Assembly (NCBI GenBank): GCA_041650835.1
Contig: JBAZKL010000001.1
Coordinates: 701,617 to 765,616, forward strand
Direction: 5' to 3'
Origin: Candidatus Omnitrophota bacterium
GTDB lineage: Bacteria; Omnitrophota; Gorgyraeia; Gygaellales; Profunditerraquicolaceae
Length of the DNA: 64,000 bases
The position numbers and the translations under genes were made by a program. Below, piece by piece: positions 1-24,000 of this stretch (within the stretch, counting starts at the first letter, position 1; each line of letters begins with the position of its first letter). The notes beneath the pieces are model-generated. The model did no database searches. It saw only the letters and a program-made list of their open reading frames with translations, and was not told the DNA's origin.

Positions 1-3000
1 AGAAAAAACAGCACAGAGAAAAGAAAAGTCTTTACCATGGTTAAAACGTTCCCGGGTACGGGAAATCCGGGAAATAACATGGGGATGCTGCAACAAAGCG
101 TCATATACCCGGCGCTCGGACGTTCCCGGACGCAGGGCCCTGTCTCCGGAAGGATCAAGTGCCCGCAGCGTTCTAATGAATAATCGCTCTTTCCGCAATT
201 TATTTTCAGCGTCTTTATCGATACGAAGGCGCAGATGCACGCTCGGCAGCATGGGAAAATCGCTGACAATTTCTTCGGCTGCCTGCGGGGTTAAACTCGG
301 CAGCAGGCTTTTCAGATAAAAACTCCTATAATAATATTTTTCAACCATAGGCCAGCGGGACGGGCTGTCCCATTGTAAAAATGTTTCAAAAGCATCCTTT
401 ATCGCGGGTATCCGGCCAAACTGAAAAAGCGCATGTATTACGCGGCGGCTCTGTTTATCATGGCCTTTTAAAACCTGCCAATTACCGCGCGCCAGCTCTC
501 TCAAGGCCTCCTGATGTTCCATCACTAACTCATCGACGCTATTCAAGCCGTCTTCACAAAGCGCAGGATACAGCATGATCAACCGCTCCAGGGACCCGGG
601 ATCAGACCGATGCGCCATATATACTATCCATGATAAGCCGGCTGCGTCATCTATATTCTGATACAAATGCTGCCGTTGCTCCCTGATACGTTTACGCATG
701 GGGACGGTCCATTTATAGTAGCCCTGGAACACCGGGTCATGCTGTATAAAATTGACCACCGCGTGGCTGCGTTCAATCACCGCGTTATAACAAACCTGCA
801 GTTCGTCAGGCAGCTGAGTGACCGAAAAAGGCGCCTTCGCCCAAAGGCGGGAAAATATTTGTAATTCCGTATTGCGGGCATCCCTAATACGCTCTTTCCC
901 CCAGCCGCGTTTGTTATTAAGGATACAGTATTCGACGCGCGCGCGAAGCCCCGCAAAAACATCAGGCTCAACCGCCCTGATATACCTGAGAAGCCAGCGG
1001 GTGATAAAGAAAGCCGATTTATCGTCCCAAACCGCCCCTACCCCCTGAAAATCCTGCATAGGGCTTAAACGCTGGTGACGCAGGGTTTCTAAATAAGGCC
1101 GGTATACCCGCGGCTTATTTTGAGCCGGAGAGGATGAGCTGCCGATATCGCGATAAATATTCTCTACCTGGCGCCGGAGAAAAGAGCGCATATAGTCATA
1201 CGCGAACCATTCATAGCCGCGGCTATCCGTCGAGGTAAGTGAGCGCACCTTCTGCCGCAGCGCGCCGTCTCCCTGTTCGTCGAAAGCCATAACCCTGATC
1301 CCGTTCACCCCCATTTCTGAAATATGTTGTATCGCGTGAAAACGCAGGCGCTGCAATGCCCGGGAGGCGTCCCCCAGGATCGCCGGGATCGATAAGAACT
1401 CAACTGAAGCGTATCCGCGCAGAGGGCATCCGACAGCATGACGCATCAGTAAAGCGATGAATTCAGGCGCCTGCCAGAACACTTCCTTGAAATATTTCGG
1501 CGAGATATCCTGTTTTCCGATAGTAAGGCAATAATGCACCGGAAGTTTTCGCTCGATCCGGCCTCCCATGATATGCTGAAATTTCCGCGCTATATACAAA
1601 AGTTGAGGTTCATCCTCATCATCATCTACCGCCACGATCAAATTCAAATCGCTCCTGTTTTTCCGGGCCAGCCCCACATACCCCAAACTCCCCATAATAT
1701 ATACCTCATAATCCCGCGTAACCTTTCCAAACGTCTCCTTGCGCAGAAGAAATTCCCGTAAATCCGCCGCCAAGGCATCTTTTTCCCGTCGGGTAAATAC
1801 CGCGGAAAGATCCATTCCCGGGCACTCTTTCAGCAAAGGGATATCCGCGATATCGCTTTTTACCCTCTCAAAGAGGAACTTTTCCATTTGCGCGAAACGC
1901 TCAAGCGGATCTTCAAAGCTGCCCAATCTATCTTCAACCGCGACCCGCGATCCTCCTTTATCGGAAACGCCCTGCCCGCGGTCTTTTTTGTAATACGGCT
2001 CGCCCAAAGAAACGTTCTTTTTTTCTTCCCGCTGCCGGCTGAATTTACCCCTCAGAAAATACTTTCTTACCCCCGATAAAACATAGTCCTCCAGATCGGC
2101 CTCGGAATCAGGCTCATAACCATTGGCGTGAATAATTTCCACTAAAGACAACCTGGCGTCTCCCAGTTCATCTCCCAGGAAGAATTCATCTTCATAGGTC
2201 AACTTCCTCGGCAGAGCGCTTTCGCAGGTGGGAGACCTCACCACCGCAAGGACTTTAGGAAGAAAATACTGAATAAGCTCGTCCCTGGAATGAAGGTCGC
2301 CTCGCGCTGAAGAATTCCAAAGTTCTAAGATAGTATCGGCGTTGCTTTCAGCGTTATTCCCATGAACAGCCTTGGTAAATTGAGCATAAGCGAACCCGCC
2401 TTCCTCCCGTTCTTTTCCGGCGGATTGAGCGTTAATCTTACCCGCGCTCAATGCCAGATCGTACGCCGCCTGGCTGGCATATAAGGCGATCGAACCGCAA
2501 TTCTTAATGAGCGGGGCCGGAAGCAGATGGCCGCACCCATAGACATCGTTTAAGGCGTGGAAAAGCTGCGTGTGCCTGCGAAGGACCGTCTTACGGTTTA
2601 TCTTTTCTTCTTGCGGGAGAGCCGTGTACGCGCTTACCGCTGACTCAAGCGTCGGGAACATCCTGCTGAATTTTTGCGCGCGCGGGACCGCTATCCCGTA
2701 TTCCAAACACGCTCTCACTAAAAATGGCTCGCTTTTAATTAGCTCCGAGAGGATACGCTTCTCCGCGGGAACAGCGCGCAATGAATCATAAGCCCTGCGG
2801 GAATCCGGGAAATAATGCACATAGCCATCATAATCCCCGGAGGCAAGGATATCTTCACAGGACAGATCGAGTGAGCGGGCGGCCGCTCTTCTTGCTTCAT
2901 GTACCGCCGCCATATCAGGACGATGGGCCAATAACGCGTTAACAGAAGCAGTACTGTCTTTAAAGACCGCGTGAAAAAGTTCCTGGCGATTGTCACGCAA

Positions 3001-6000
3001 TAAAGCCAGGTACTGCCCTATCCCTAATCCGTGACGCAAAACGCTCCTTTGCAGCAAAAGACACTGTCCGCCGGACGATAAACAAGCAGCTTGCCCGGCC
3101 ATATCCCGATAAAAACAATAGATTCTCTGCGCTGCTTTCAGCGGATCAAAATACTCAAAGAACTCATAAACACCAAAGGAATCGACCGAATCCAGGAGCG
3201 AAGCTTGCGCCGGGCTCAGATATTGGTTTTTCTTTAAATTAGAAAGCCGGGCAACTCTTTCCGCCGGATCAACAGAAGTATCAAACCAATAATCAACAAC
3301 CTCCCGGGCAACCGGCTCTTCAAAACCTGCCCCCGCGAATGCCTTAATGAGCGCTTCCTTCTTTCTTGCAGGGCCTGACAGGACAAGCTTTTGCCGGGCG
3401 GCAAAATTTTCCCGGTCCCGCTTTATAACATCTACCGCCATGCCTAAACTTATATCGTGGCTATCCGCGACGGAAATAAGCGCCTGACGGCTGAATCCAC
3501 GAGCGATGATCCTGGCAAGGGATGCTTTCTCTATATCAAGCGATTCTAACTGGGATATTTTTTGCTTTATTCTCTCGACATCTTGCTGGCTTAACCTTAA
3601 GCCTTGCACATTAAAATTGCGCGCCGCCTGAACCGTATCGGAAGATAAAATTCCGTTTTCCTGGAGCCGGTCGAGACATAAAATCCAGTACCATTTCATA
3701 TCTTTACCGGAAACGACTTTTGCCAGGGCCTCAATTAACTCAACGCCCAGAGTGACTTTATACCGGGATAATTGCTGCCGGAGGGTTTCGCGCATCCGCT
3801 CACGCAGGAACGCGATCTCCCGTGCCATCATCCGGTTAAAAACCTGCGGATACACCCGCAAAAGCAGTCTTACCCCCGTCAGATCAACCCCCCGCGGATC
3901 GCTCCTTACTTGCCGCACCGTAGGAACATGACAGCCTAATTCTTTAACCCGCCGATTGGCATGGATCAGTTGAAACGGACTCACCAGGGTGCGCGCGGCT
4001 CGATGCGCGATATCTTCATTCAGGCCGCTTTCAATCAACCGGTGGCGCAATATATCCAAAGCGACAGGGTCATAATACGTAAGCCCGCGGCATTCTTGAG
4101 CCGGCGTAACGGCAGTCACTGCTTCTATCGCCGAAGAAGCAGTGCCGCTTTTCATAACTATATGCCGGGAAATAATGCTTTTCTCAGAAACAACTACCCG
4201 GATATTAACGGGCTGTATTAATTTTGTGCCGCCCGGACGAACGAGGGACACGCCTGCGGAGACCTGCGCTATAGGTTTATTATTGAGAAAAACGTATTCC
4301 GGGGAAAATATACTTTTAATTATTTTCAAGAGGCGTATATCGCCGGCGCGGTCCACGCGCAGCTCAAAATAATCTTCGTAAAGCTGCCCTAAATACAAAA
4401 GATACGCCGCGAGGAAAACAAAAACAGTCTCACCGATCCCTCTGCCTCTCATCTCTTGCCCATCATATATCTTTTTGACCGCTATTTCATTTATCAACAA
4501 ATACTTCTCATGCTCTGCGTACGCATTCGCCAGATACCACTTGATATCGCCGATCTTTACAAACGGCTCTTTTAAAAATACCGTTAAACTCGAATCAATA
4601 ACAATTGCCGGGCCGCCTTTCACATTAGCCAGAGCAGTACTTCCTTTTTCTAAAAATGACTCTATTTCTTTAGTCCCGAGCGCTGAAGCGGCGGCTTTTT
4701 GTTTTAAGAATATCTGAGCCCGCTTATAGGGGCCGGCTTCGCCTGGTAAATAAACGATACCGTCATGGCTTATATCATTGCGCTCCCGTTTAAATCCGAC
4801 ACCGATAACCTGTTTTCGAAATTCCCGCTGGTATAATCTGTAATAGAATTCTCCGGCAGGACTATTCTCATCAACATGAAGCGTTATCTGATTAATGCCG
4901 CTCCCTTGCAGGGTGCCGATAAATTCCCGCAACAGGCCGGTTTCCAGGCTCCCCCGGGGATATAACGGCATAGCTGCCATATAATAAAGGTAACCGGGAT
5001 AATCCGCGAATGGCCCTGAAACAAGATACCCGGCAATTTCGTTTTCCAGGATACTCAGATAGATAGTATTGGCAGGATCGGTCGCCACCCGCCAAATAAG
5101 ACCGTTATCTTTCGGGAAAACCGTATAATAAGACGGATTCCTTACTTCCCGGTCAATGCGGGCTATCCCCGCAAGGCTTGCCTCATCAATAGTACCGCCA
5201 TTGATCGCCCTATAAAGAGGCGAACTGCTGGTGCGGGTCGCAACAAAGCAACCTACCGCTTGGTGAGACGAACCTCGAGCCTGCGCCCGGCCGCTGCGCA
5301 TCAATCCGGAATGAGCCACGCATTCGGCATTAAAACGCTCCATCGCGGAATTCAACCAATGTAAACTGCCGCTATCCCTATCGGTAAACTCCTCCGCCAT
5401 GTATTCAAGGCCGCGATTAATATGGCGGTAATAGATATTCTTAACTTCAGACGGGCCGATACCCCTCTCTGAGGCGATCTTTTTTAATTGAAAGGCGTGC
5501 GCCCATTCATGCTTTATTATCCTCACCAGGAGAAACCGTTCCATTACCGCCACAAACAACCACGCGGCTCCGTAGATGATCGCGGCACAATTTGCGGCAT
5601 GGGCCAAGAGAGGCGCATTTACGAAGAAGTAAGAGGCGCAGATACCGCAGGCAAAGAAGAACGCCGCAGCCGGAAGCGTCAACGACCACCCGCCATAACT
5701 AATTGTTATTGAGTTCAGGCGGCCTTCTAAAAAATCAGGGACACAACTGGGGATCCTCACCTGGAGCAATAAAACAAACACACTCAAGATCCGCAGAGAA
5801 AAAGGCATAGACTCCCAACCATCCATAATAAACCGTTTAAACACTTTAAACTGGGACAACGGGGTATATTTTGATTCAAAAACTTCGATATCATTTGGGC
5901 GTATCCCGCGCACATATTTTTTTAGATCGAGGATCATTTGAGCTTCTTGTTTTTTAAGCGGCGAAGAAGCACGAATTTCGCGTTTATTTATCCGTTCGGT

Positions 6001-9000
6001 TAATTTTGACAGTTCCCTTCCGACACTCCCTCCCCGGGGGCGGCTAAAATCGTAAGGCTCACCGAGAGCTGATAAAACAATATTCCAGAGCATCTCATCG
6101 CGTAATCCTCTTACTCCGCCGGATATTTTATAAATAAAGAGCTGTCCTATATCAACAACAGCCCATAATGAAAAACCCCACTGGACAATCCCGCTTAACC
6201 GCAGCCAAAGGGGAAGCGCGGCTCCGGCGATATTTAAGCCGATAAGCAATAATAAAGCGGCACCGAAGAATATGTTAAGAATACGCAGATGAATGAATAT
6301 CCTGACAAAGTTTTCTTTTGCCTGCCAGGACAAATCCCTATAACGGAATATCCTGATAAGCCAGAATAAAGAGGCAGTTGCGCCATAACTGATAATGGCT
6401 ACTGCCGCAGGGAGCAGGGCTGTTTGCCCGGTGAGAGAATACGGCAGCAAAGCTAACCCCGCCAATGCCCAAACAAAAGGGGTCAGAAGCGCGAATACAG
6501 CCCTATTAGATAATATATTCGGCATGCTCCTTTTGAGCATGCTCTTGGAGCCGCCCCTGTTTAACCGAGTTAAAGATACGCCGTATCGGCTCAAAGCCAG
6601 CGGCGAAGAAGATAAAACGCGCCTGCCGATAACCCCCTGCCAGCACTGAAGCTCTTTACCGGGCGCTACGCATTCCGCGCCGAAATATTCTTTTGCCCAA
6701 CGTTCCATCACGGCGTTTCCTTTGGCTATGGAAAACCTGATTTTGTTATTCAGGCGACTGCTTTCAAGGAAAACTACTATTTTCTTGAACGTCTTTGACA
6801 TTAAATATTTTCCTCTCAATCGCGCGGTCACCTCCGGCGTGCGGCCTAAAGAAAGATAGTCAAAATTAACATACCGTTCGAAAACCGCCGCTGAAAAGAC
6901 AAATTCAAAATCATAATTACTTATGCTTCCTTTATTAATTTTATCTAATCGTGATCTTATATAGCGCGCCTTGTCAATTATCACCGCGTATTCAATATTA
7001 TGAGGAAACTCCAGTTTGAGTTCAATAAGGACCAAGGTATCGCCGCAGCCATTCAAATATTCTTCGAGCTTGCCAGCTGACTCGGAAGGTTTTGCGCTTA
7101 ATTTAAATATCCTTAGTTTTTTACCGCCATTAAAACTTTTAAAGGCGGATAACAGGTCGTCTGCCACGAATTCGCTCGATGGCCTTTTTAATAAAGAGGC
7201 AAGTGTAGTAAAGGCTTTTTTGACTGAGCGCGCGGTAAATGCATAGTGCCGGCACGGCATTTCTGTCAGCGGCGAGGCGGCAGTAAAAACACAAGTCATC
7301 TTTGACTCATACGGCTTAAAGCCGTTTTTCTTTTCTAACGGAGAGGACGCTTTTTGCTTCCAGGAGCGATAATCCGCTTTTAATTGCGCGAGGGTTTCCT
7401 CGAAGATATTGATCAGGGCGAGGGTTTCCCCTTTATCCGCCTTCGGCAATGAATTGTATTTTTGTTTAACGCTGACGAGCATTTCTTCAAAGATAGCTAT
7501 CGCGGAGCCATACGCGAACTCTTCGGCAGCACAAACATGCTCTCGGGACTCAAAAGCCCCGGCGATATCATGATCGTATTTCCCCGGATCAGCTTCAAAA
7601 TCATAGACGTGCCCGAAAAGCTCATGCGCCAGCACAGCCGGGAACATATTCTGTTTTTCCTCAAACAAGTCGGTTTGAAAAACAATAAGGTACGTATACG
7701 GTTTGCCGGCCCCAGGGCGCAGCGCGATCGTGATCGAAGGGACGGCTCCCTCGAAATAATACCCGAGAGAAGAAGCCAGCCGCGCCACATTATCAGCCTT
7801 GAAGAAAAGAAGCCTCTCTCCTGAAGCGTACAGAGGCTTCAAAAGCTCTTTACGCTTCTGCGCGGTTTCGCTGAGAGTAAGAAAGCCTAACGTATAGCTT
7901 AAGTACTCATCTTCCATATCGGAAAGGGCCTTAAGCTCTCTCTGGAGCATGCTGCCTCTATCCGGGCTTTTGATAAGATCCTGCGCGAAGAGCTTTCTTA
8001 TATCGCTTAAGAACAGGCTTCCCGCTAAAATCGTTATAAACTGCCTGCGGGTAAACATCGCGGAAGATGCATAGCGGCCGATGGCCCATAGCCTATAATA
8101 GTCCATAGCCTGATCTCTTGAAACCGCTAATAATCCCTTATATTTTCCAACAGGGCTGCTGGACTTTGACCCTCGGGCTTCAAGGCACTCGAAATAGAGC
8201 TGATCGAGGATCAAAGCTTTTCTCTCTCCAAAACGCCCGAGAAAATCCTCATAATCAAAGAATACATATAATTTTACCAGGAATTGATGATCGTCCTTGC
8301 CGATATTCAATAAATAAGAAAGCAGGTAATAAACCTGCTCGAATTCTCCTGTTTTAATAATGCCGCGCAGCAAATCTATTTCCCCCTTATCGGAAACAGG
8401 CTCTATTGCCGTATGCAAAGCGCTCACTATGGAAATCTCTCCTATTCCCAGGTCGATCAAAGTTTCCCGGCTGACCCTATTTCCCAAATAATATCCATAC
8501 GGATACTTGAAATATTCATATAAGGACCCGCTCGGACGGACCGTATCTTTATTCTGGAATTCCACCTGATATATTTCCTGGTGGGGGATCCCCCTATACG
8601 TTATCTTTCCTAAATGCAAACCTATTCTGGTGGCATTCAAGCTAAAGGCATCCTTTAAACTAAGCTTAACGACATAGCTGAGCCTGTAGCGATTCCGTAG
8701 CCCCCCCAGCCGGGACCGCAGCCACTGCTTATATATCGGATCATGCGCCATAGGTAAAGCTATCACGATCTTCTCCTCAAGATTACCTGCCGCGTCAAAC
8801 TGTTCAATGTCCTGGCTGAGCACGATAGCTTTAAACAAATGCCTTATATCTTTACCTATATACCGCACTATCTTCTGCTGTTTAACCTCCCAATATCTTC
8901 CATGCCCATTTGTCAGCTGGTAGCCGAACCGGTAGATCCCCTTATGCTGTTTTAAGAACATAAGCGGCAATATTCCAAACTTCTCTTCTTCTACACCCAA

Positions 9001-12000
9001 AATATTTACCTCTTGAAAAGTAATCGGTGAAGCTGAAGCTAACAGTTTTCTGCTTTCAAGCAGCTTCTCCAGCTCAAGCGAACGCTTTTCATACATCCCC
9101 GTATCTTGATATACTCCCGTCTCAATAATAAAAGCGTTCACGGCAGCGGGAACAAGCCTCCCGACAGATGATCCGTCGCGGACCATCCGACGGATCTTAG
9201 ATGAAGACAGATCAGCGTCTTGTGGATCGGGAATAAATTGCAGAGTAAGGATCTTATCTTTTTCTCTAACTAATCCTTGATATTCAAGCGTATCTTCGAT
9301 CCGGGCCCCCTGCCTGTCCATGACCACAAAATCGTTTTCTTCCAATAATCGCCCGAAATCGCCCGCGAGCGTTGATTGCATTGAATCCTTGCCGACAATA
9401 AAGTAAATTTTGATTTCCCGGGAATACTGCTGCCGGTAATACGCTTTTAAAGCTACAGACATTTCCTGATACCAGCCGGTGTTGACTAAAAACAATTTAT
9501 CGATCCCCGGCTTACCTTCTGCCTTATATTCATCAAAAACTGCCTTTACCGTGAGGATCCTATCCTCAAGCGACATGCCGGAGACCTCTTTTTCAAAGTG
9601 CCTGGTCCCGATTAAGAGTATTGTTTCATCCAAGCTTCCTCCTCCCGGCAAGCGTATATCTTTGGCTACTTCACTCAAGAACTCGTGAGCGTTATGCAGG
9701 CAGTTGGCGGTCGGGACAATAACGCCTATTTTAACCGGAAGGGCTTTTTGCGTTGTTTCCCGGTATTGCGTTACCAGGACAGCCGCAGGCGTCTGCCGTG
9801 AATTTACCTCAATGATCTTCTTCCGAGTGAGCTCATATTCTTCCAGGCAGTTCCGGGGAGACCATCTTCCCACCGACTCTATATCTGCGAAGAACTCCTG
9901 CCAATCCTGATCATCCAACACTTTGGCAGCCATTATCAAATTCTCAAAAAAGCGCCTTTCTCTTTCATCCTGTTCAAGGCGTTCAATGGTATTCCACCGC
10001 ACCAGCCAGGTAAATTGCTGAATGAACTTTAACCGCAGCATCTGCGGGATAGCCCGGATCTCCTGCCTGTTTAAAGGATACCCTAACTTCTCCGCTGCTT
10101 TCTGATACAAGATCACCCAATTCTTTAGTTCATCCATATTAAATTCAGCGCCTGCCTTTTGCAGGTCGTAGAAAAGGCTGCGGATCAAATCGTAAACCCT
10201 TGCTTCCGGCCTGGCAATTTCCCAGTCAAGCACCTTACTGATACGCGCACCCAGCATGGTCACGTTTTCCGCGCGGAAATCACCATGGATCACTGCGCGC
10301 GGCAGGCGGGCATATACCCCGGCCAAATGGCGTATCGCAAGGGCTATCTGCTCTTTGAAGAAAGGCTGATGCTCTATAAAAAGCCGCTCCCCGAAGCTCC
10401 TCCCGGCAGGATCTTTCGCGGTAAGGCGCTCGTACGCTTCGTCTAATTTCAACAGACGGTCATCGATTCCCGCGAATTTGATCACGGGATCGGTGATCCT
10501 TTCCCCGCGTAAATGCACCACGCGCGCATCCATGGTAGAGGCATGCAGCCAGGCAAGAAATCCTGCCAGGTCTTTAAGCATTTCAGCGGTCAATTCTTCA
10601 TACGCGTAAATCCTTCCCAAAGAGTCAAACCGATAGACGGTAAAAATGGCGTCGGCTTCAACATAGGCGGCATTGCCTTCTTCCGTATATATAATCTCAG
10701 GGAATCGGGCGTCTCTTAAATTATTAAAAAGTTCCGGCTCCCACAAAGTGCCTTTTAAGTCCCAAACTGATTTTTTAATAACCACCCTGCCTTTATTACG
10801 CGTATCCAGGATCGCGACTTTATTATTCAATCCCTGGAAATCAAGCGAATCGCTTTCGATTTCCAGCCCATAGGCCGCGGCGATCCGCCTGAGCTCATGC
10901 GCGGTGATCTGTACGGATTTATCGCGATGCACAAAAGATTCACGCTGCTCCCAGAGGCTATCGAGAGCGAAAGAGAGCTGCTCTATCACGTGGGTAGGAA
11001 GAAGCCCTCTTTTTCTTTTTTGTTCTCTTACTACCATATCCGCCGCCAACCCATGGACATACACCCCCAATACCGCCGCTTCACGGGGAGTGAGGCCTTG
11101 AGCGATAAGTCCGGCAATAACGCCGGTAAGGACGTCCCCCATCCCGGCTTTTGCCATATATTTATTTCCGGTAGAATTACTATAGACGCTTCCATTCGGA
11201 CAGGCGATAAGAGTACGTTCGTTCTCATCCCCCTTGAGCACGACCACCGTTCCATACGCGGAAGCAAATTCCCTGGAGATATCCGCGCGGCGGGATTGTA
11301 TTTCTTCAAGAGGGATACCGCTTACGCGTGCCATTTCAACAATATGCGGAGTAATGACCGTCCTGCCCCAGGCATTACGCAGGATTGAAGCCTTACCCGC
11401 CAAAGCATTAAGTGCGCCGGCATCCAGGACTAAAGGAATCCGTGTATTTCTTAATAACCGATACATGACCTCATGCGCCTGATCTTGTTTTACGATAAGC
11501 CCGGGGCCTATTGCTAAAGCGCCTATTTTATTCTGAGAGATCTCCCGCAAGAGCCCTTCTGCCGACAGCAGGTCAAACGAATGATCTTTTTGGTGCGGCA
11601 ACGCGCAGGCCATAACCTCATCCGCCGACTTAGCGTAAAACATGCTGTAGAGATATTTCAAGACACCTGCATATACCATACCAGTGCCGCTCTGCAACGC
11701 TGCTTTTGACGCCAACTGCAGCGCGCCCAAATATTTCCCTATCGAACCTCCGGCAATCAATACTCTCCCTCGGCTGCCTTTATGGTCATTGGATCTTACT
11801 TCCGGCACCAAAAATGCCGCGTCCTGTTCATCAATGGCCTGGATTTTGCGGTTTTTATCTAAGCTTGCCTCAATAAACAATACTATTCTCGGAAAATCGA
11901 CATTTTCCGAAACAATCTCAATATCTTCTGACCATAACTTTAACTGCCTCTCCGGAGTAAAATTATCCACACTCACCGTAAATCCAAGCCCAGAAAGCAC

Positions 12001-15000
12001 AGACACATATTCTTCGACTGAAAAATACTGCCAACTCTCTTCTTTTTCTATATCCCACCGCTGGTCTCCAACATATTGATATTCGCAGACAAAATGCATA
12101 AAATCTTTCTTGGATATCCTGACCATATACTCATCGCCTTCGACCAGATCAAACGGCACGTCTTTAGGCAGGAATTCACGGGCAAAAACATAAAAAGCAT
12201 CTTTAATATTTTTACTTTTAAATTTCATCACAACCTGATCATTTTGTTCGTCTTGCGCAGTATCCGCGCCGTCATAAATATACAAATGCCCTGCTGGCTT
12301 AAGCATCTGAGTAATATTGCCTAATGCAGTGCGCACAAACTTGAGGCCAAGCTCATGATTAATCCTTTCCTCGACACGGCGGGTAGGCCTGCCATAATAT
12401 GAATAGACTTCATGGAGAGTATTGGTAACCATGACCACATCAAAACGCCGCTTTAAATCGCTCGTATCCTGTTCAATGATATCGCGCACGATAAAATGCA
12501 TATCTGCGGCGACGAGTTGCGCTTCATCAACAATGTCAGGGTTGATATCAATACCTAAATATTCAATATACGGGTTATCCGGGAATGCCTCTTTCAGGAC
12601 AGCCAGATCGATCGCCTGTCCGCAGCCGATAGACAATATAGAAACCTTGCCCCCCTGTTTTAAACGCTCCCTGATAAACTCCTTCACCCGCTCCATGACC
12701 TTGCCTTTACCGTCGATCCTCTTACAGGAGGCCATCATGGTTAAAAGATATTCCTTAAATGTCTGCCCGCTTAAGGCGACCCTGCCCTGCGCGTATTCGG
12801 CAAAACCTTGATAAAGGCCATGCTCCCGGATATACCGGCAGATCTCATCCGGCACAAGGCCCTGGATAGGAGCTTTTTCCTTAACGAATACCCTCACTTC
12901 CGCGGAGCTGTGTTTTTGATACTCTTCGTCAATGAGTAACGGCTGTAAGTTACCGGCATACGTATGGCAAAACAAAGATCGCTCTTTAAAATCCGCGAAG
13001 CGCAAATCCTTCTCATCCGCGATGAGAAAATGACGCCCCTCAAAAAGCGCGGGTAAAACTTCCTGATCGCCGCCATAATCCCAGGAAAGGATACGCTCGA
13101 AAGAACGCATGCCCAGGATCACATACAGATCATCATGATGGAGCTGTTTTTTAAGCGCTTCAAGGATATCAACATATAAGCTTTTATAGATCACCTGACA
13201 GGAATACCGGGGGTTCCTTTGGACGAACAACTGAAGCATTTCTTTTCTCTGTCCGAGGGTTGTCCCGTAGGCTTTTGTGTGCAGGGGGTTGGCAGTAAGC
13301 ATAAGGATCATCTTATCCAGGCCGTATTGCATGCGCGCTTCTTCCATCATTACCTTCATCGCGGTGGTAAGGGGATTGAAAGCGCTGATAAAAATACCCG
13401 TTTTAGAGCGGCCGTGCATTGCTTTGATCATGGGGCTGGAGGAAGACGCCTGCGGAGGGGCGCGGGAACGCATAAGCGTTGCCAACGCGGATGAAGACGC
13501 GGGGCGGACGGGTAAATCATGCAAAGTAAGGATACTCACTCCCGGACAGCGCAGCGGCCTGAGGATCAAAGCATCACCCATAAACCCGAAACGGCCTGCT
13601 TCCAAACCCGAAGGCATTGCATTATTTACTTTCCGTAAGTGATCCTGCGCGTTATGAGTTAAATATATATTTCCCGGCTTTTTAAGAAACTCATCATTCC
13701 GGCCCATCATCGCCGGCCGCTCCAATATCTTAGAATTCAGAAGGACCGCGATCTTACTCTTACGAGAGAGATACGACTCATAAACGCAGCTTGGCAAAGG
13801 AGATTTTTCTTTCTGAGCGCCCTGAGAAGGATACTCCCGGCAAACAACCGGCCGTTTTCCATATATTGAACACCTGCCGAGCCAGGACAACCCTTCAGGA
13901 AGATCAAAATCTACCAGGACCTTTAAGAACCAGCAAGGCTTCAGGATAAAGAGCTTCTGCTTATCAGGATCGTAAAATAGCAGCTCCAGGGCATTATCAT
14001 AGAGAGGGCCCCACTGCTTACGCATACCAAATCCCGCGACGCCGATATCATACCAGGCGCTGCTCCCGGGAGAAAGAAAACAACAAAAACCATCCTGGCA
14101 GATATTTTGCTTAATATTAAACGGCTGCGACGCAAGCTCCAGGCTGAAATAATCTCTCTTACTCATACCAAAGACCGAATACTTGTCCTCACCACAGGTG
14201 GATACACAAGCCAAGGGGTTTGACGCGGTATTTTTATTACGCTCATTATAAATACCTTCTAAAACTACAAAAATGATACGGATATCTTCATCCGCTAAAG
14301 AAAACTCATCCTTTATCTCGTCTTGTTTTTGCTTAATAAAATTTGTTAAAACCGACAGGTCATGCGGGGTTTTTTCTATAATAACCTTACCTCCCCGGGT
14401 CAGGTATAATTCAGGGTCCCGGCGTTCCCAAGACATATAAGCAAGATGGGTCAAAGCGTCAGCTCGAGGATCATCCCATTTATAATGAGGATCTTTTATT
14501 TTTGTCGCCCTGTCTTCTGCGGAAAATCCGTGTTTAAAGAACTTGTATTTACGCGGTTCTTCCCGGCAGGTCTGTACCCACATTTGATAGATCCGCTCCA
14601 AATCAAGGTCGGCGCAAAGCAAATCAGCGTCATAGAGTACTTGCGCCTCGATCTTTGCTTGCGCTGTTTTAACCTGTAAAGCGTCCGCAGTCTTAACTTT
14701 TTTGTGCCCCACGATAGCGCTTACAATATCCTCAATCACTGTTTCATCAAAATATCCTGATTCTTCCAATAACAGCCTCGCCCAAAGAGCTGAATAACGA
14801 TGATGGTTCTTCTTATAAAAGAGATATGAGAGATCATGTAACAAAACAGCGAAAACAAGAACAGAGAAATTAAAACCTCCCGGAGCATTATGTTCATGAT
14901 CCCCCGCTTTAACTATTTCAATACTCTGCCGTAAGACCTGCAACACATGAATAAAACCATGTTTAGCCTCTACAGTCAGATCGGCGCAAAAACGCGAAAA

Positions 15001-18000
15001 GAGACAACGAGGCAAATAACGGTACAACATATCCAAACATCTCTTAATATCACCAATGACATTTTTTCCGGACGATGTTACAAAACCCCCTTTTAAAACT
15101 GTCTCTATTGATCCCGTATGACGGGCAATTTCTTCACTAAAATCTTCCGGAAAAAGACATTCCTGGAGGATATTCTCGCCTGATGCCTCTTGGGGAGAAC
15201 AGATTAAACGGGCGAAGAATGATTCAGCATTCTCCGCAATCACCTTATCCAGAAATCCCTGTATCTCTAAAAGCCCGGTATCATCAAGGTTATCTTCTTT
15301 CAGAAGGCGGACCAGTTTTTCTTCTTGAATAGCTGAACTGGAGCGGGGCTTCACCTTGAGATCCCGCTGTGTTGCCGGGAATAACACACAAGGCAAACCG
15401 ATCTGAGTTAAACGGTAAGAACGGCAAACCACAAACGGCGATGAGCTATGATTTCCGTCATTTTTAAGCTGAAGAAGGCTTTCCAGGCATTGCATTTCTT
15501 TTATTATTTCGTCTTTAAGCTCTACGGCATTATCTCCCAGCAAATTATTAATATTTCCCAATCTCTCAGCTAATGTCAAGCGACTTAAGAATTGCGGGCC
15601 CAGCCTTTCTTCAAAGCTCATTTTTCCAATAACTGCGAATAAAATAGTATCATGTTGGCTCTTATTCTTAATTGTAAACCCTTGGATACGCTCTTCTTTC
15701 TCGTTATTTATGATAATAAGGTCACCGCCTAAGAACATATTTCTTACCCCTAACGCCCTCCCCTTTTCATCATACAACTCCACTTCCCCCCTCAAATCAT
15801 GGATAGCCGCATCCATGTTCCAATAAGAATTAATTATCTTTGGCCATGGGAATATTCGTACCGTTTGGAATCCAGGATAGATCGGATTCACATCGAAGAT
15901 GCCACTTACCATCCCCTGATTTAATGACACGATCCTGACCTTCACATAGACAACACCCGTTGATATGGGCAAATGCTCTTCACTAAAGGCCATTTGATGG
16001 TTTCTATCTATTCGTAAACCATGGATTAACCCCGGATAATAATGCGTGAGAACCTCTCCTCTGGCTCTGCTCAATTGCATTCTCTCCGGGGGTATAATTT
16101 CGATGTGCTCCCGGCCAGCCTCTTCGGGATACGTAAAACCCTTTTGCAATTGTACAAGCGGGTCTTTAATAGTAAAATCAGCCGACGCGAATTCATGCGG
16201 GTTAGTTATTCGATGCAATGTCTTTGCAGGGACCTTGATCATTGCTCCCGCGGGGACATGCCAAGTAGACACCGCACCTTTTGAGTCTGCCTCTTCTGCC
16301 AAAATATCCCCTGTTAAAGAAATAGTTAATTCCTGGTCGTCATGATAATGGTTGTTTTGAACATGCCGCGGGGGGTTTTGCACTTCACTGATAGCTATAC
16401 CATCCGACAAATACATCAAAGGATGCAGCGCGAAATGGTGATGCCGGGGCTTAGCGTCGCTCTCCCCGAACCTGCTGAGCTGGAAGAAAGGCACAACAAA
16501 CACAGGAGCCTCTTGCGTTAAATATAAGAACGATTCTTTTGACAATCTTTTCGCGCTTAATACCGCCTCTCCAAGAGCATCTTGCAACGCGGGCGTTTTG
16601 CTCACCTCATACTTTAGTTTTTTCAATCTCTCATGGATCTCAAATGCGGCGTATAGCCTGCTTTTCCTGGCTTCATAGCTGATCGTATCGATTTGAACGC
16701 TCTGCCGTTCATTGAACACCCTGACGGCTTGCGCGTGTATCAAGCTGAGTTTAGAAAGCTCCTGGGCGATCACTGCTGATTCAAGCGGTCTTACAAAAGA
16801 CCGGGCATCATATACCAACTCCTTTGAATATTTCAAAACACCAAAGTAAGTTTTTACTTTTGATAAATTCTTAGGGTCATATTCGTTTTTTTTATACAAA
16901 AGGATCTTCGATTTATTATTCTGGTAATAGTGGACAGCTTTCTCAATTTGACTTACGATTTCCTGAGTAAAACCATACGGCCGCACTTCAAAGCTAAAAA
17001 ACTTTTCATTTCCCTGGAGGAACTCAAATAAAGAACCGCTCAAGTGCCTCCAAAATCGCAGCGCGTCGTTGACATCGACATTTTGTTTACTAAAAGTATG
17101 GATTTTAAAGGCTGCCCTGCGGTATTCATACTCGCTGTAATCACTGGCATTGAAGAAATAAGCGAGCCCTTCCTCGACAAGATACGGGGCGATACTGATC
17201 TGCCCTTTTGTCGCGCTGCCTCCAACCTCTTCATCAACCACATACACGTCAGTATCCAAAAGATACCCCCCTATAAATCCAAGCAAGTGCATTTGCCTGA
17301 CAAAATGTATATCATCCCCCAGATTGCCCAACAATGACAGGAACGGGTTTATTTGGATAATATCTCTTCGTGTCGCAGTCACCATTCCCAATACAGAGTT
17401 CGTAACTACTAAATTATTACTTAAGAAGTGTTTTAGCAGGAATCTCGGTTTATAAAACTCCATATTCTGATTATAGGCGGGGACGCTCACCATTGCGAAT
17501 TCCGGATTACTTCCCAGCACTCCGATTAATTTCTCAATAACAGGGCCGACCAACTTAATATCATCATCGACAAAAACCTGATAATCCCCGGCAGACAAAG
17601 AGACCGCCAAGTTTCTATTTGTCGGTATTGTATTCTTCTTTGAACAGACAATTTTTACGGGGAACGGCACTGATCTTATTTTCTCTTCAACAATATCACG
17701 TTTTTCGCGAGTAAAATTCTCAGGATCTGCTATTGTAATAACAAGTTCTAATTCTATTTCACCTGATGCCCTGGAGAGCTCTTCCAGTCTTCTTAACAAT
17801 GACGCGTGTCGTTTTCCAAATACCGATGCTATTGCGACGCTGACCTTGACCTTTTTTGCGGTTAAATGCTGATTATAGCTATACACCTGTCCCCGGCACT
17901 GGGGTAATTGAGTATCCCAATAATTCCTGCTCAATTGTTTAAGTTCGCCAACCTTTTGAGAGAACTGCTGTCTTGCTTGGAACATTTTCTGCACCGCGTC

Positions 18001-21000
18001 ATCATCGATCTGAACATCGACTGAAAAACCCTGCTTTTCAAAAGTCCCGTTATGAAAGATGCCCGCTTCCCGTGCGATCAAATAAACCTGTCTTTTTTCC
18101 TTATCGCTCAAGCCTTCTAAATGATTATTAATACGCGCGGTGACCTCATTAACATAATGCTCAGAGAATATGTCTTTTACTCTTTCCCGGACTACTTGGG
18201 TTATTGTAAAATCATGTATGGTTTCAACTCGTTTCAACAACCAGTTAATCGCTCCGTGGCCTGTGAGTTTTCCTCCGCTGACAGCGTCAATAGAGCTACT
18301 AGACGTTTCTCTCTGGCGTAACGCCGCAGGAGTAAGATTAAAACCGCGTAAATTCCCGATACCAGTGACCATTGATAAGCGGATCACTGATAAATCAGCC
18401 AGAGCAGAGGAACACGGGGACGGTTGCTCAAGATGCAGATCCACTAATTCACCGCTTTTATAATTTTCCCGGAAAAATCTCTCTCCGAATTCCCCGAACT
18501 CCACCTGATGCGGGCCCCGCTGGGCGGAGAGCCCGGCACGGGAGGGAATAATTATGGATATCGCCCGTTTAAACGGTTCAACAACACCGCACTTCTTCCC
18601 TGCCTGATCATCACTTGAGCTATCCGGTAAAACATTCGTTGCCGTGGGGAAATAAGTATTATACTTTCCGGCTGAAGGCGCCAAGTAATAAATAACCGTT
18701 ACATTAATATTATTTTCTCGAGACAGCCTGACCCATACCCGCTCTAAGAGACGGGAGAATATTCGATGAGTTTCATTATCATCCCTGGGATGAGGGATGA
18801 ACAGAACTACCGCGGGATTCCCCCTTGCCGATATACTTTTATTAATAAATCCCTTTTCGAGGGAATAGAGATGTTCTTCTACCCCTTCGGGATCGCGGGA
18901 GCAGGCCAAGTCATAATCCAAGTGAATGTTCTTTATCCGGCCGGCAGATAAAATACCCGCGGCATTACTCAATTCCTGCCTGCGGATATCCGCCCCTGTT
19001 AAACCTTTTTCCTGCTGCGCTTGAGTCAAAACCACGCCGCGCGCACCGCTGCTATAAACCACATTCGTAATATCAATACCTTTTTGAGCCAACCGCACGC
19101 CTAATCCACCCGCCGCAATTTCGATATCATCGGGATGCGGGGAATAAAATCTGAAACAAACATTCCTGTTTATTCTGACAGGAACAAACCCTGCGGGCGT
19201 TCGTTCTTTCTCAAACGCCAACACATACCTCTTTGAAAGCTCTACCGGTAAAATCTCCCCCCTTTTTATACGCGTCACCGTAAAGGCGTGAGCGTACGCA
19301 TTTTTATCGTGCGTGAAACCATAGTAACCGGCTAAAGCGCCCGCATAGCGCATGGCATGCCGGGTAAAACTTTTGTAATCACGGCGCTCCTGCTGTGACT
19401 TATGCGCACCGACAGCTTCTATTACTTTTCCCGCGGTTTCTTCACCAAAAGAAAAAACGAGATTAAACTCAGGAGGCAATTCCAGGGAAGCATAATAAAA
19501 CGCAAGCAACTCACGCTGCCTCAGCGATGAATACAGGAGTATCAAATCTTTGGCATGCGGGCAATACGGGGCCAGGATAATTTCAGGGTCATAATCCCCT
19601 AATACCCGCTCTAAAGGAAGATCCTTCCAGGTAAATACCTTGACCTCATTTTCCTCCCGAAGGGCGTTGACAAGATTTCCCGCGAAAGCTAAATGATCGC
19701 CTTCTGTTATCTCAAAAACAGCGATCTTTTTTCCGTAAGGCACAGGATAATTCTTCATGCTGTCCGTGATTTGAGCCTTAGTAAGAAGGATATTCCCTTC
19801 TAAAGGATAAGCCGCATTGTTAACAAGCCGCTTCTTATGTTCATCATAGGTTACCGGGATGATCCTTAAGAAATCGTCAAAAAGACCTTCGAGAACTTCA
19901 CCAAAGGGATCGCCGGACTCATGCAATGCGCCGCGAGCAGGAAGCCCCGGGTATCTCTTGAGGTATTTACCCGGATACCCCACCAGCAAACCAAGCAGCT
20001 CGATCAGGCAATTAAAATTATACATATATTGCTGCCGCAATACTTCCGGGATATTTTTAATCGCTTCTGAATCCGCATTTTGTTCCAAATATACCCTTAC
20101 AATACCCGCTACAGTAATATGGATCCTATTACTATGCCCGGGAGGGACGGAAAATAGCGGGGTAAAGTGTTCCACAAATCTCCAATGCAGGCCGTTCTCC
20201 ATAGTTACCGGAAAGGTTCCTGAAAGCGGGAAATTCTGACTCAATAGATCCTGAAAAACCTCTCCATTAACCCTGACCTGCAATTCCCGGTATTTTGGAA
20301 AGAATTTAACTGCCAGAGACGGTTCATCCCTATGCTGATAACGCTGCTGGCGTTCCTGCCTATCTCTTTCCCAGAAAAATAACGGGATTTGAGGGCCGTA
20401 TAAGATCAAAGTCTCTTTTTTGGCTTTATCGATCAGTAACGTAAAACGCAATGTCAAAGGATCCTCGAAAAGCTTAAGCACAAACAATTGTTCCGTAGCG
20501 TAAATAGAGATACATCCTGCGTCCCAATAATACTGCCCTATTCTGTCTTTGCCCCATTCAAAAGTCAAATTTTCGTTATTCGTTTCCCCAAGCGCGCTTG
20601 AACTGGATTTTTTCTTAGGATCTGCCTGCTTTTGTCTTTTTTTTCGGCCCTTTGTCGCTGCTCCTTTTTTCTCCTGAGGAGCGTTGCCTTTCTTTTCTTT
20701 GCGCGCCTGTTTTTCCTCCCCGCGTAAAAAGGCCTCTCTGACAGCGAGGCGGGGGAATAAAACCAGGCTCCCCAGCAGCATCGCGATAGTAGCATAAAAA
20801 GGCATTTGGCCGATAAACCCGAACAAAACAGCCGCTTCGGTAATTATATTACTGACGGCATGGAGCATAATAATGGCCCATAACGAACTTGTCCTGGCAT
20901 ACACTGACGCGTAGACTACCCCGGACAGGAATTGCTTGATAGGTATGAACTTGATGCCGGCAAAAAACGGCAGGATCAAATGATAGGCGGCGAAAAGAGC

Positions 21001-24000
21001 CGCGCTTATAAAAATGCTTTTGCCGGTGCCTACCTTATAACGCTCGACCAATAAACCTTTAAATATGACCCTCCTGAATAAGATCTCCTCAGCGACAGGA
21101 GCCATAATGATATTAGATGCCAGCGATACCATATAAACAGTAAAGCCGCTTGCGAAGAAAGCGGCAACTACTATTGCAGCGGCATTAACCGCAGTAAGCA
21201 GGACAGCGGCAATAAACAGCGTGGATGTTTTCAGAGAAGCTATTTCTTGTTTAAGCGCGGATGAGGCGCGCGGATGAGGCGATTTTGAAGAAACGATAAC
21301 GCGTGTTCTTACCCGGTGCAGGGTGAGCGCCAAGCCTCCGCGCTTTGCCAGGGCAATAAATTCCCCTTTTTGTTCAGGCATAAGCTGCGCGGCTTTAAAC
21401 CAATCTAAGAGCGCACAAGAAAAACCAATTTCCAAAACATGCTCCAATTCAATCCTTCTATTCTTAAGATACCCTTGAACCAAGGGTATTATCGCCTCGA
21501 TTTTTTCCGCTTGGATACCCTGCGCAAGCAACGCCTTTCTGATCAGCGCCAAGCGGCCATTTTCACAAAGATAATCATTTACCTTACCCAAAGCCTGCTC
21601 GACCGGTGAAAAGTTTATCCTCACCCCCTGGCCGCGCTCAAGAAAAACGCCCATCGCCCGGTATTCTTCATAACTCCTTTGCGGAGCTTCCGCGGCGCAT
21701 AAAGAAAGAGGCAAAGCGAGAAACAGCACTTTTGCTATCGCAGCCCTGATAAAAAAGAGCGCTTCGGTTAAATCAACTGACTCATATCCGTCTTCTATCA
21801 AGATCCTGTTTAAATGCCTGCTTCGTTCACCTAAAGGTGAGATCCCATCGTTTAAAGTAAAATACCATTGCGTCAACTCCTTGCCCTGCTTCTTGATCTT
21901 TTGGGATTGCTGCTGCTTCGGCTTGATAAAAGGCGGGCGGGCTAAATTGATGAAAATATTTGTTTGTTTGAGGTGACTTTTTACCTGTTGAGACATCTCT
22001 TTGGCAGTAGCGGCCTGGATAAGCCGGACACCTTCGGGAGGCCGCGCGTGGGTCGGGCCGCTTATAAGGATAACGCGAGCCCCGCTTAAGTGAGCTATTG
22101 CCGCGATCGCGTAAGGCAACTCCGGGCTTACCTGGCGGCTAATGATCCTGACCCCATCAATGGATTCTTCGCTTGAGCCGGATGAGATCAAGATTGTCTT
22201 TCCCGCGACGCCCGCGAACGGCGGATACCGTTGCGCCTGCTCCAACCGCGCTGTTTCACCTTGTTCCCGAAGCTTTCCTTCCAGCTTCACAGACCGGTAA
22301 ACCGGCCTGAGCGAACGCTTACCGCGGACATCTAAAACTATATCCAGGATCTTATCGGCAACAACTGATTTAGATGCTTCCAAGCAAAGATCATCGTCTT
22401 TATTTTCCCTGATGATCACTACTTTATTGTTTTCACCGCGGAAGCCGCTTCCTTCCTGCCCTACCCTATTGGCGCAAATAAAATCCATATTCTTAGCGAT
22501 GAATTTCCTGCGCGCTTCTTCCACCATCGCTCCCGGCTCAACAGTCTCCGCGGCGAAACCAACGACCACTAAGGATGAAAATTCGAGTTTTTCTTTCTTA
22601 AGGCTGCCGACCCATTTTAAAATATCGGGATTATTATGGAGCGTCACGACAAAATCGCGGCGGCCTTCTCTCTCGATCTTTACCGGACGGTAATCAGCTA
22701 CTGCCGCCGCTGAAATATAGACATCGGCAAAGCGCAAATTCTTAGCCACCGCTGCTTTCATTTCCAGGGCAGTGGACACATCGACCCTCATCACGTTATC
22801 AGGAGTTTCTAAAGATGCGGGCCCGGCGACAAGGATAACGCGCGCTCCCCTCTTTTGTGCCGCGGCGGCGATGGCAAACCCCTGCTTTCCTGACGAGAAA
22901 TTCGTGATATATTCAGGCCTGCCCGGGATAGGTTCCCGGTTCGGCCCTGCGGTAACCAGTATAGTCAGGCCTTTAAGATCATCCGCCAAAGAAGAAGAAC
23001 TTTTTATATATTCGCTGTAAACTTTCGACTCGGGGCTCATTTTCTGGGCCACGTGTTCACCAAAGGGATCATCCGTTAAACGATACAGGCTGACCTCGAT
23101 CTCAGGTGCAACGCGCGACGGTGAATATCGGGTAACACAAAACCCTCCCGGGGCAAGCATCTTCCTTAAAATATCCTGCTCCAGCGCCAAATGGGCTTCA
23201 TACGAAAAACTATCGATCATTTTATTGACCAGAATAAAATCAAAAGCTCCCAACTGCGTGCGGATTTGCGCTTCCAAGAAGTTTGCCGAAAGGAAACCGA
23301 CCATTGTTCTTAATCGGGCGTTCACTAAATACGCTCCTGTTTCATCGTCGAAGGTAAAATATTTATTTACTGTTTCCCCGGAAAGGCTGTCAATACTGCT
23401 TTTCCTAAAACGCCCCGTTCGCGCGGCTTCAAGGGCAAAGCGGTTAATTCCAACCTCAGCGATCTCAACAGGACGCGCTTTTGTATCCCAACCGCTTTCT
23501 AATAATTCAACAGCCAGCATGTACGCGTCAGCGCCTTCTCCGTAGCCCAAACAGAGTATGCGTAACGGTTCACCCTGCGGGCGCAAACGCTCCAGTTCGG
23601 GAAGAATGACCCGGCACATGAATTGATGCACCGGGCTGATCTCAAAAGAAGCCCCCCCGGTGATCATCACCGCGTTCAGATAAACCTGCGCGCAATCGCT
23701 TTTGTCCCACATATCTCTTGCTAACCGCTCAAAATCAGCGGTACTTTTGAGTTTAAATAACGCCGCCAGAGATTCATCATATAAAACAAAACAACTGCCG
23801 TAGATGGGAAAATGTATTTTGAATATATTCTCAATGAGTTTTGTATAATATCTCATTTGCGCCTGTTCGCTTAAATTACTATTCACGAAGGCGTATTTTA
23901 TCAGCTCCGATGGATACAAGCCAAACCGCTGCGCGATATCCAAAAGATGGCCGGGGAAACACCACGACCCTTTACCTTGCTCGATCAACCTCTCCATATC

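Follow-up and report, generated by a model that had tools for sequence, protein, structure and literature searches.

A recurrent junction peptide at the borders of exchangeable cassettes in an Omnitrophota giant gene that carries a CPBP-type intramembrane protease unit

Introduction

Does a protein of more than twenty thousand residues act as one chain, or is it cut into functional units, and if so where? This question is raised by a 64,000-nucleotide (nt) stretch of DNA from a Candidatus Omnitrophota bacterium (assembly GCA_041650835.1, contig JBAZKL010000001.1, positions 701,617 to 765,616 of the forward strand; hereafter the window), which is spanned from end to end by a single open reading frame (ORF). 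Omnitrophota giant genes have been described (Seymour et al. 2023, PMC10066038), as have the 'Archaeovorins' (West-Roberts et al. 2023, bioRxiv 10.1101/2023.11.21.568195) and 'multi-enzyme metabolic cluster' giant proteins (Nielsen & Lui 2026, bioRxiv 10.64898/2026.06.07.730766). Such genes reach 147,155 amino acids (aa) in the literature, and whether their products act as one chain or are cut is an acknowledged puzzle. Self-processing has been proposed from the presence of C39 and S8 peptidase domains, with the cleavage points stated to be unknown (bioRxiv 10.1101/2023.11.21.568195); the processing idea itself is thus already published and is not new here.

We report that the polypeptide encoded in the window consists of protein-sized cassettes, about 170-1,700 aa long and strung together, that each junction carries a short peptide, and that related giant genes differ by the gain, loss, replacement and reordering of cassettes exactly at these junctions. 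Our overall best explanation, to which we assign a probability of about 0.5, is a cassette string in which a CPBP-type intramembrane protease unit would be carried as cargo and the junction peptide would be a processing site.

Results

The window is filled by one giant ORF of a known kind

The ORF is read in frame 2 of the minus strand.

1..63999, minus strand: single giant ORF of at least 21,333 aa, ends outside the window; 0 stops; collinear with L001

All 21,333 codons of this frame are open, whereas the other five frames contain 746-1667 stops each, and the frame overruns both ends of the window, which makes its length a lower bound. Residue n lies at window position 63999-3(n-1) and downwards, i.e. 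0-based codon i occupies 63999-3i..63997-3i. Stop-codon reassignment and an assembly artefact were considered and rejected, because the other frames are rich in stops and because the frame is conserved, with a ratio of nonsynonymous to synonymous substitution rates (dN/dS) of ~0.2, in a second genome.

This second genome is a Candidatus Omnitrophota metagenome-assembled genome (MAG) and contains the closest relative, on contig JBAZTA010000002.1 (L001). When aa 14041-14460 were used to query one genome per prokaryotic species, L001 matched at 75% identity and the remaining matches were ordinary stand-alone CPBP genes at 29-43% identity. The 21 kb of L001 form one open frame that is collinear with the window ORF at 70-80% aa identity. 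A metagenome scan yielded a second relative, Ga0268280_1000297 (L015), whose 20.7 kb are also fully open. L015 shares with the window the cassettes at aa 16627-18313, 19124-19376, 5285-5504, 6002-6201 and 424-540, but arranges them differently: its copies of the last three are downstream, whereas those of the window are far upstream. This rearrangement points to shuffling of cassettes between giant genes.

A Pfam scan of the window ORF gave a sparse mosaic of about 15 distinct unrelated families, none of them dominating, i.e. PrmA-like methyltransferase, B12-binding, ThiG, two HATPase_c, CheR, DFP/CoaB (E 5e-77), Rce1-like, PIG-L, GT2, HD, S-adenosylmethionine (SAM) methyltransferase, NAD(P)HX dehydratase (E 4e-44), APH kinase and cytidylyltransferase domains. 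Clusters of hydrophobic helices were few (aa 5313-5357, around 14080, 14253-14420 and 19167-19495), with all helix positions and counts here and below coming from crude hydropathy scales. The ORF resembles the published Omnitrophota giant genes in being a single frame of tens of kb with sparse unrelated Pfam domains and scattered transmembrane (TM) helices, in combining methyltransferase, HATPase_c and HD domains (the published 'module 1' signature), and in its poor conservation between genomes and mostly absent family assignment. It differs in having no SecA_DEAD, C39, S8 or dockerin domain within its 21,333 aa, and in features that appear in neither bioRxiv paper (see Discussion). With many Pfam families, TM helices and a length well beyond the 10,000 aa that serves as the lower limit for such ORFs in Omnitrophota genomes, it is an Omnitrophota giant gene of the 'multi-enzyme' class.

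Neither this ORF nor L001 or L015 had a representative in an index of 5.8 billion proteins queried with the HEWAH region, a paralogous cassette and the CPBP cassette described below (the last at E <= 1e-5, perhaps too strict a threshold). Giant ORFs or pieces of them appear to be missing from this index, which limits their analysis by homology.

A short peptide is strongly enriched in the giant ORFs

A previous sequence-only reading of the window had taken its recurrent SSSP linkers to be meaningful, and this proved well founded. No 4-mer of the ORF is more over-represented than SSSP (9 occurrences against 0.26 expected, Poisson P ~1e-11). The strict motif S-[SA]-S-[PA]-[LIVFM] occurred 18 times in the window ORF against 0.6 expected, and a broader form 33 times in the window, 11 times in L001 and 8 times in L015, compared with 1.7, 0.3 and 0.3 in shuffled sequences. 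The three giant ORFs contain 8.4-11.6 strict motifs per 10,000 aa, and ordinary ORFs (67,878 aa from unrelated loci) contain 0.15, a difference of about 60-fold. A logo of the 52 sites showed R, K or S at -4, then S, S or A, S, P (39 sites) or A (13 sites), and L, V or I, which gives the consensus [R/K]-x(0-2)-S-[S/A]-S-[P/A]-[L/V/I] with no conservation beyond the core 5-6 residues; the L015 sites are nearly all SASPL. In the flanks K, S, R and P are mildly over-represented, and the surroundings of most junctions are soluble, basic and polar and remote from TM helices.

The codons of the motif indicate the level at which it is conserved. Its Ser codons are drawn from both the TCN and the AGY families, and orthologous motifs keep the peptide while S, A and G change at the variable positions; this variation of the Ser codons implies that selection acts on the peptide, and a motif read at the DNA level was rejected on the same ground. 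The first Ser uses all six codons evenly. Before Pro or Ala, TCG serves as the Ser codon in 11 of 31 sites, compared with a share of 12% among all Ser codons, and AGT does not occur, a mild codon bias at this one position. Two other kinds of punctuation were considered and rejected: (i) internal translation starts after junctions, for which a Shine-Dalgarno sequence with a start codon was found at 1 of 33 junctions, against 4.1 for random positions, and (ii) signals in the RNA, since no Rfam family and no tRNA was found.

The peptide marks the borders at which cassettes change

We compared the positions of the motif with 43 homology breakpoints in the three ORFs. More than half of the breakpoints (53%) fell within 20 aa of a motif, compared with 5.9% for random positions (maximum 21% in 2000 trials), and the median distance from breakpoint to motif was 14 aa rather than 230 aa. 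Individual cases show insertion or loss of whole cassettes between motif copies, as well as replacement. The features involved are:

25867..25917, minus strand: 'empty slot', SGSPV and GSSPL 12 aa apart, aa 12695-12711; L001 has a 565-aa cassette there
27187..30519, minus strand: ~1,100-aa cassette with two HATPase_c domains, aa 11161-12271; flanked by SGSPL and ASSPV; absent from L001
15448..20589, minus strand: PIG-L deacetylase-like and GT2 block, aa 14471-16184; distal part from about aa 15215 replaced in L001

At the empty slot the window reads 'KPS-SGSPV-QGRHSQEG-SSPL-RSR', whereas L001 reads 'KPG-SSSPI-QGA...565 aa...EM-SGSPV-RSR'. At the second site, 'SGSPL...1,100 aa, two HATPase_c...ASSPV-PAGHP' in the window corresponds to a lone 'ASSPV-SAEHP' in L001, and at aa 18613 a mini-insert in the window ('SSSPV-31 aa-ASSAM') stands opposite a single 'SSSAM' in L001. 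The replacement extends over aa 15215-16844, which in L001 has given way to a ~680-aa cassette with a Peptidase_M23 domain and a poly(A) polymerase head domain. In L001 this cassette lies at about 13352-15751 (L001 aa 4450-5250). Motif pairs 12-35 aa apart, i.e. of the empty-slot kind, occur at aa 12695-12711, 1513/1525, 16185/16220, 16835/16853 and 18613/about 18650; they may be scars of deletions or else landing pads.

These cases raise the alternative that the motif is a by-product of cassette movement at the DNA level, e.g. a recombination site or target-site duplication, rather than a peptide signal. Such an origin would fit insertions flanked by two motif copies, deletions that leave one or two, the differing cassette order between genomes and the TCG bias before Pro or Ala. 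It is at odds with the free variation of the motif codons, which includes TCN/AGY switches that need two substitutions, with the lack of anything conserved outside the 5-6 residues, and with the way in which orthologous motifs keep the peptide while S, A and G vary. We therefore regard a DNA-level origin as extremely unlikely, and the motif as very probably a selected peptide signal at the borders of cassettes. In the cassette architecture itself, taken together with the identification of the CPBP unit described below, we have high confidence.

Two further sets of cassettes are of note. A ~1,150-aa cassette without a Pfam match is tandemly duplicated at 23-34% identity (aa 8820-9941 and 9962-11153, window ~30540-37540), and a third, partial copy lies 9,400 aa downstream (aa 20540-20953, window ~1140-2380). 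All three copies end in S[SG]SP. A 171-aa cassette at aa 4099-4269 (window 51193-51705), between GSSPI and SSSPN, opens with a P-loop NTPase signature; its weak matches to AAA/Sigma54-type profiles start from profile positions 2-5, ~10 residues past the junction, which is consistent with cassettes beginning at the starts of domains. A Pfam scan of ten short cassettes gave weak matches only (a P-loop right after the junction; small methyltransferases). The first of the bordering motifs is recorded as follows:

aa 4094, minus strand: paralogous cassette end GSSPI; counterpart to SSSPL at aa 19130-19134

The CPBP cassette is a complete intramembrane protease unit

The sequence-only reading had placed a CPBP/Abi protease signature with three motifs at 20.8-21.1 kb. 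These coordinates were correct and the strand, which had been left unstated, is minus; all three motifs lie in the giant frame.

21253..21270, minus strand: junction motif RASSAL, aa 14244-14249, directly upstream of the CPBP cassette; CASSAL in L001
20608..21252, minus strand: CPBP cassette, aa 14250-14464; ~6 hydrophobic helices, then a Lys-rich tail
21070..21090, minus strand: CPBP motif 1, EEILFRR (EExxxR), aa 14304; direct translation and alignment
20980..20994, minus strand: CPBP motif 2, FAAYH (FxxxH), aa 14336; direct translation and alignment
20848..20865, minus strand: CPBP motif 3, LHAVSN (HxxxN), aa 14379; direct translation and alignment
20590..20604, minus strand: junction motif (S)SSSAL, aa 14466-14470, directly downstream of the CPBP cassette; KKSSSSALGETNN identical in L001

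The cassette sits between a CoaB-like/CheR block and the PIG-L/GT2 block. The Rce1-like profile PF02517 matched aa 14290-14386 with E 7e-15 within a 5-kaa piece of the ORF, and the cassette alone with 61.3 bits (cut-off 22.4, E 1.1e-16) over positions 5-93 of the 93 in the profile. In an alignment with L001 and 13 stand-alone CPBPs, EExxFR, FxxxH, HxxxN and RTxSL were aligned with the same residues. The ~6 helices lie within aa 14253-14420 and carry the motifs, which bears out the TM anchoring that had been proposed for this module. Compared with L001, the cassette has a dN of 0.148, a dS of 0.659 and a dN/dS of 0.22; neighbouring cassettes have values of 0.18-0.22. It is therefore a complete Rce1-like glutamic-type intramembrane protease unit with intact motifs under purifying selection, and is predicted to be active.

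The family PF02517 includes Rce1, MroQ, the myxosortase-type MrtC/MrtJ/MrtS and the Abi immunity proteins, and the cassette resembles them in its profile match, in motifs placed in helices and in its small, stand-alone size. Unlike the stand-alone enzymes it is embedded in the middle of a polypeptide, not encoded by a separate gene, and ahead of motif 1 it has only ~2 helices, compared with about 160-200 residues in stand-alone relatives. It also falls below the cut-off of every named NCBIfam subfamily, including MroQ; the best score was for MrtJ (36.1 bits against 75), all others falling further short, and the nearest sub-threshold models (MrtJ, MrtS, myxosortase and pepcterm_CAAX) are sorting-signal proteases, of the C-terminal type for MrtJ, MrtS and myxosortase. 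No alignment was available for structure prediction because the 5.8-billion-protein index gave no homologues. The single-sequence AlphaFold2 (AF2) model accordingly had a predicted local distance difference test (pLDDT) score of 56.1; its helical segments agree with hydropathy, and a Foldseek comparison of this low-confidence model with the Protein Data Bank (PDB) gave no meaningful match. A PDB sequence search with the cassette gave no relevant match. Upstream, within or beside the DFP/CoaB-like domain, for which Pfam reports two DFP stretches, aa 13708-13765 and 13963-14020 (window 21800-22900) form a short internal repeat with 40% identity.

The HEWAH cassette is an orphan membrane unit

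The second module of the sequence-only reading, at 5.5-6.6 kb, had been described as a membrane region of M48/M56-like character with HEWAH inside a hydrophobic helix. This region covers two cassettes.

6598..6612, minus strand: junction motif SSSPL, aa 19130-19134; upstream border of the 3-4-TM cassette
5974..6597, minus strand: 3-4-TM cassette of unknown function, aa 19135-19342; 62-65% identity in L015
5956..5970, minus strand: junction motif (R)ASSPL, aa 19344-19348; between the 3-4-TM and HEWAH cassettes
5230..5955, minus strand: orphan HEWAH cassette, aa 19349-19590; hydropathy, soluble tail of ~95 aa
5497..5511, minus strand: HEWAH, aa 19497-19501; the only HExxH of the ORF, directly after the helix at aa 19468-19492
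5215..5229, minus strand: junction motif SSSPL, aa 19591-19595; closes the HEWAH cassette

The pentapeptide is present as had been claimed, and hydropathy places two solid helices at aa 19442-62 and 19468-92, and a weak third, in the cassette, in agreement with membrane anchoring; HEWAH itself, however, follows the last helix and is not inside one. The acidic block that had been noted downstream was also found (EYMAEEFTDRD, 35-45 aa after HEWAH). The assignment to M48 or M56 was not supported. One HExxH in 21,333 aa compares with 0.66 expected, and 43% of shuffled sequences hold at least one. No Pfam family matched the cassette even at E <= 10, PF01435 (M48) and PF05569 (M56) included, and there was no NCBIfam peptidase and no relevant PDB sequence. 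Nor was a homologue of the cassette found in the 5.8-billion-protein index, among 1.84 billion representatives searched exhaustively with phmmer, in JGI metagenomes or in viral contigs. The single-sequence AF2 model had a pLDDT of 45.7, and a Foldseek search of the PDB with such a model is meaningless. The HEWAH module is thus an orphan membrane unit whose lone HExxH is indistinguishable from chance. In common with M48 (HtpX/Ste24) and M56 (BlaR1/MecR1) enzymes it has an HExxH beside a TM helix and a Glu ~35 aa downstream, in contrast to its lack of a profile match at E <= 10 and a motif count at chance. Because HEWAH lies at the membrane interface with a Glu 35 aa downstream we keep a small chance that the cassette might be a novel minimal zincin, although we think this improbable.

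The neighbouring 4-TM cassette is more informative about the junctions. L015 has this cassette (62-65% identity) and lacks the HEWAH cassette, and its similarity to the window stops at the junction motif. An exhaustive phmmer search with aa 19135-19595 gave one match, to the 4-TM part only. The matching protein, P0001, is thus the only remote homologue of this cassette; it is the product of a complete stand-alone gene of 253 aa with a signal-like N-terminus, and it ends '...LLISS*' opposite '...EIRASS|PL' in the window, i.e. at the aligned position of the motif. The gene comes from a Logan contig (ERR10503159, locus L016) of 1,055 nt with 30% GC, from a low-GC organism.

Other features of the window

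Two further cassettes follow the PIG-L/GT2 block:

13498..15327, minus strand: HD-domain cassette, aa 16225-16834; bounded by SSSAI and SSSAL
9037..13428, minus strand: multi-enzyme cassette, aa 16858-18321; bounded by SSSPM and SASPI

The multi-enzyme cassette contains a SAM methyltransferase, an NAD(P)HX dehydratase (Carb_kinase), an APH-type kinase and a cytidylyltransferase. Its junction residues are invariant in a three-way alignment (A1), and a search of viral contigs with this three-sequence alignment found nothing. GC skew on the plus strand is negative in every 2-kb bin, i.e. G exceeds C along the coding strand throughout. The sole plus-strand ORF of at least 150 aa (10897-11388) is antisense to the giant ORF and probably spurious.

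Discussion

What does the junction peptide do, and do the membrane modules act on it? The sequence-only reading had answered both questions together: the CPBP module and an M48/M56-like HExxH module would cut the polyprotein in cis at the SSSP linkers. Part of this stands, as the CPBP cassette is real and, from its motifs, looks catalytically competent, HEWAH abuts a TM helix with an acidic block 35 aa later, and the junction motifs exist and provide a candidate site. An HExxH beside a helix would be expected only ~0.02 times, a post hoc estimate that takes TM flanks to make up a few percent of the ORF. However, nothing links either membrane module to the motif. The HEWAH cassette matches no family, NCBIfam model or PDB entry, has no homologue and is absent from L015. 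Most junctions lie far from any TM helix, whereas the known targets of CPBP enzymes are membrane-proximal termini or sorting signals, and neither CPBP enzymes nor zincins are known to cut at a small-small-small-Pro-aliphatic sequence. Like every other cassette, both modules have the motif on either side and therefore look like cargo, not processing machinery. As candidates for the cutters the two membrane modules have the least support: one of them cannot be demonstrated to be a protease, most junctions are remote from membranes and both modules are cargo-like. We consider the model as it was proposed very unlikely, and it is likewise very unlikely that the CPBP or the HEWAH module is the processing enzyme of the giant protein. 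The CPBP cassette is more probably cargo that acts on membrane-proximal substrates.

We propose a different mechanism, in which the junction peptide would be a recognition signal, most likely a proteolytic processing site, at which the giant translation product would be cut into operon-like sets of separate proteins by a soluble protease rather than by the CPBP cassette. The combination of small residues, Pro or Ala and an aliphatic residue is close to the P4-P1 preference of serine proteases of the subtilisin/elastase type, which act on Ala-Ala-Pro-Phe/Leu/Val substrates. A soluble protease is the better candidate because of this resemblance and because S8 and C39 domains have been reported in such genes. 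Signal peptidase I was also considered: small residues at -3 and -1 would fit, but Pro at +1 blocks this enzyme and most junctions are presumably cytoplasmic. We favour proteolysis because it would explain the conservation of five residues, the end of P0001 at the motif position and the stringing together of unrelated enzymes.

The main alternative is that the peptide is a signal that is never cut (a hinge, a helix cap, a site for a prolyl isomerase or chaperone, or a site of phosphorylation or glycosylation), the product remaining an intact, membrane-tethered multi-enzyme scaffold. The motif is conserved as a peptide between folded units and its flanks are polar, basic and linker-like, as would suit such a role; several enzymes can share one inter-motif block; and the TM clusters could, on crude counts, all be even-numbered, which is compatible with an intact chain whose enzymes are all on the cytoplasmic side. 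A conserved Rotamase_2 prolyl isomerase gene near giant genes has also been described (West-Roberts et al., bioRxiv 10.1101/2023.11.21.568195). On the other hand, a passive linker needs no conserved five-residue sequence, and the occurrence of Ala instead of Pro in 13 of 52 sites speaks against prolyl isomerisation being the essential role. The stand-alone P0001 ends exactly at the motif position, and there is no obvious reason why CoaB-like, NnrD and ThiG enzymes and kinases should share a single chain. On balance an uncleaved signal seems unlikely, though it is the most serious of the alternatives.

Several points weigh against the processing explanation. Cleavage at the motif is proposed from sequences, and the link between a protease and this substrate is putative. 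Across the 21,333 aa of the window and the 14,000 aa of L001 and L015 that were scanned, no S8, C39 or other soluble protease was found, apart from one M23 peptidase, and this sits in the L001-specific replacement cassette. The four enzyme domains of aa 16858-18321 have no motif between them, so that not all enzymes are set apart by it. In about one site in four Ala stands where the others have Pro, and the apparent invariance of the core positions is inflated by defining the motif set with a regular expression. The AF2 models (pLDDT 45.7 and 56.1) are too poor to place the motifs in disordered linkers, and the comparison comprises three giant ORFs, two of them close relatives. For these reasons we hold cleavage at the motif only tentatively, at somewhat short of even odds.

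MARTX toxins with a cysteine protease domain and viral polyproteins are built from exchangeable units joined by short linkers with a recurrent site, and their repertoire varies between strains. The giant ORF is like them in having one long product, exchangeable units and a recurrent site at the linkers. It is unlike them in scale (at least 4-20 times larger) and in its units, which are mostly cytoplasmic-type enzymes and membrane modules, not toxins; moreover, its cleavage and the protease that would carry it out are putative. A recurrent site at the boundaries of units, as a polyprotein should have, is present, and shows a candidate site only. A wider proposal, possible but more speculative than cleavage itself, is that the junction peptide may be the punctuation of giant genes in general, i.e. 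that these would be bacterial polyproteins, the equivalents of operons cut at a common peptide, with cassettes that can be exchanged together with their own junction. If true, this would provide the field with the cleavage points it has described as lacking, and would explain cytoplasmic enzymes, membrane modules and the CPBP cassette in one frame.

Linkers, SSSP and CPBP/CAAX proteases are mentioned in neither bioRxiv 10.1101/2023.11.21.568195 nor bioRxiv 10.64898/2026.06.07.730766; the CPBP cassette is thus a new detail, and the junction peptide, with its link to the borders of cassettes that are inserted, deleted and reordered as units, is absent from those two papers. The junction finding is a lead that makes an open question testable, not a demonstrated mechanism. 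It gives a rule for segmenting giant proteins in silico, a precise hypothesis for proteomics, i.e. neo-termini at the motif, and a picture of giant-gene evolution by gain, loss and shuffling of cassettes, while the CPBP cassette adds an intramembrane protease to the activities that giant genes carry. Even if the motif were merely a hinge, it would still reveal a modular grammar of the largest known bacterial proteins.

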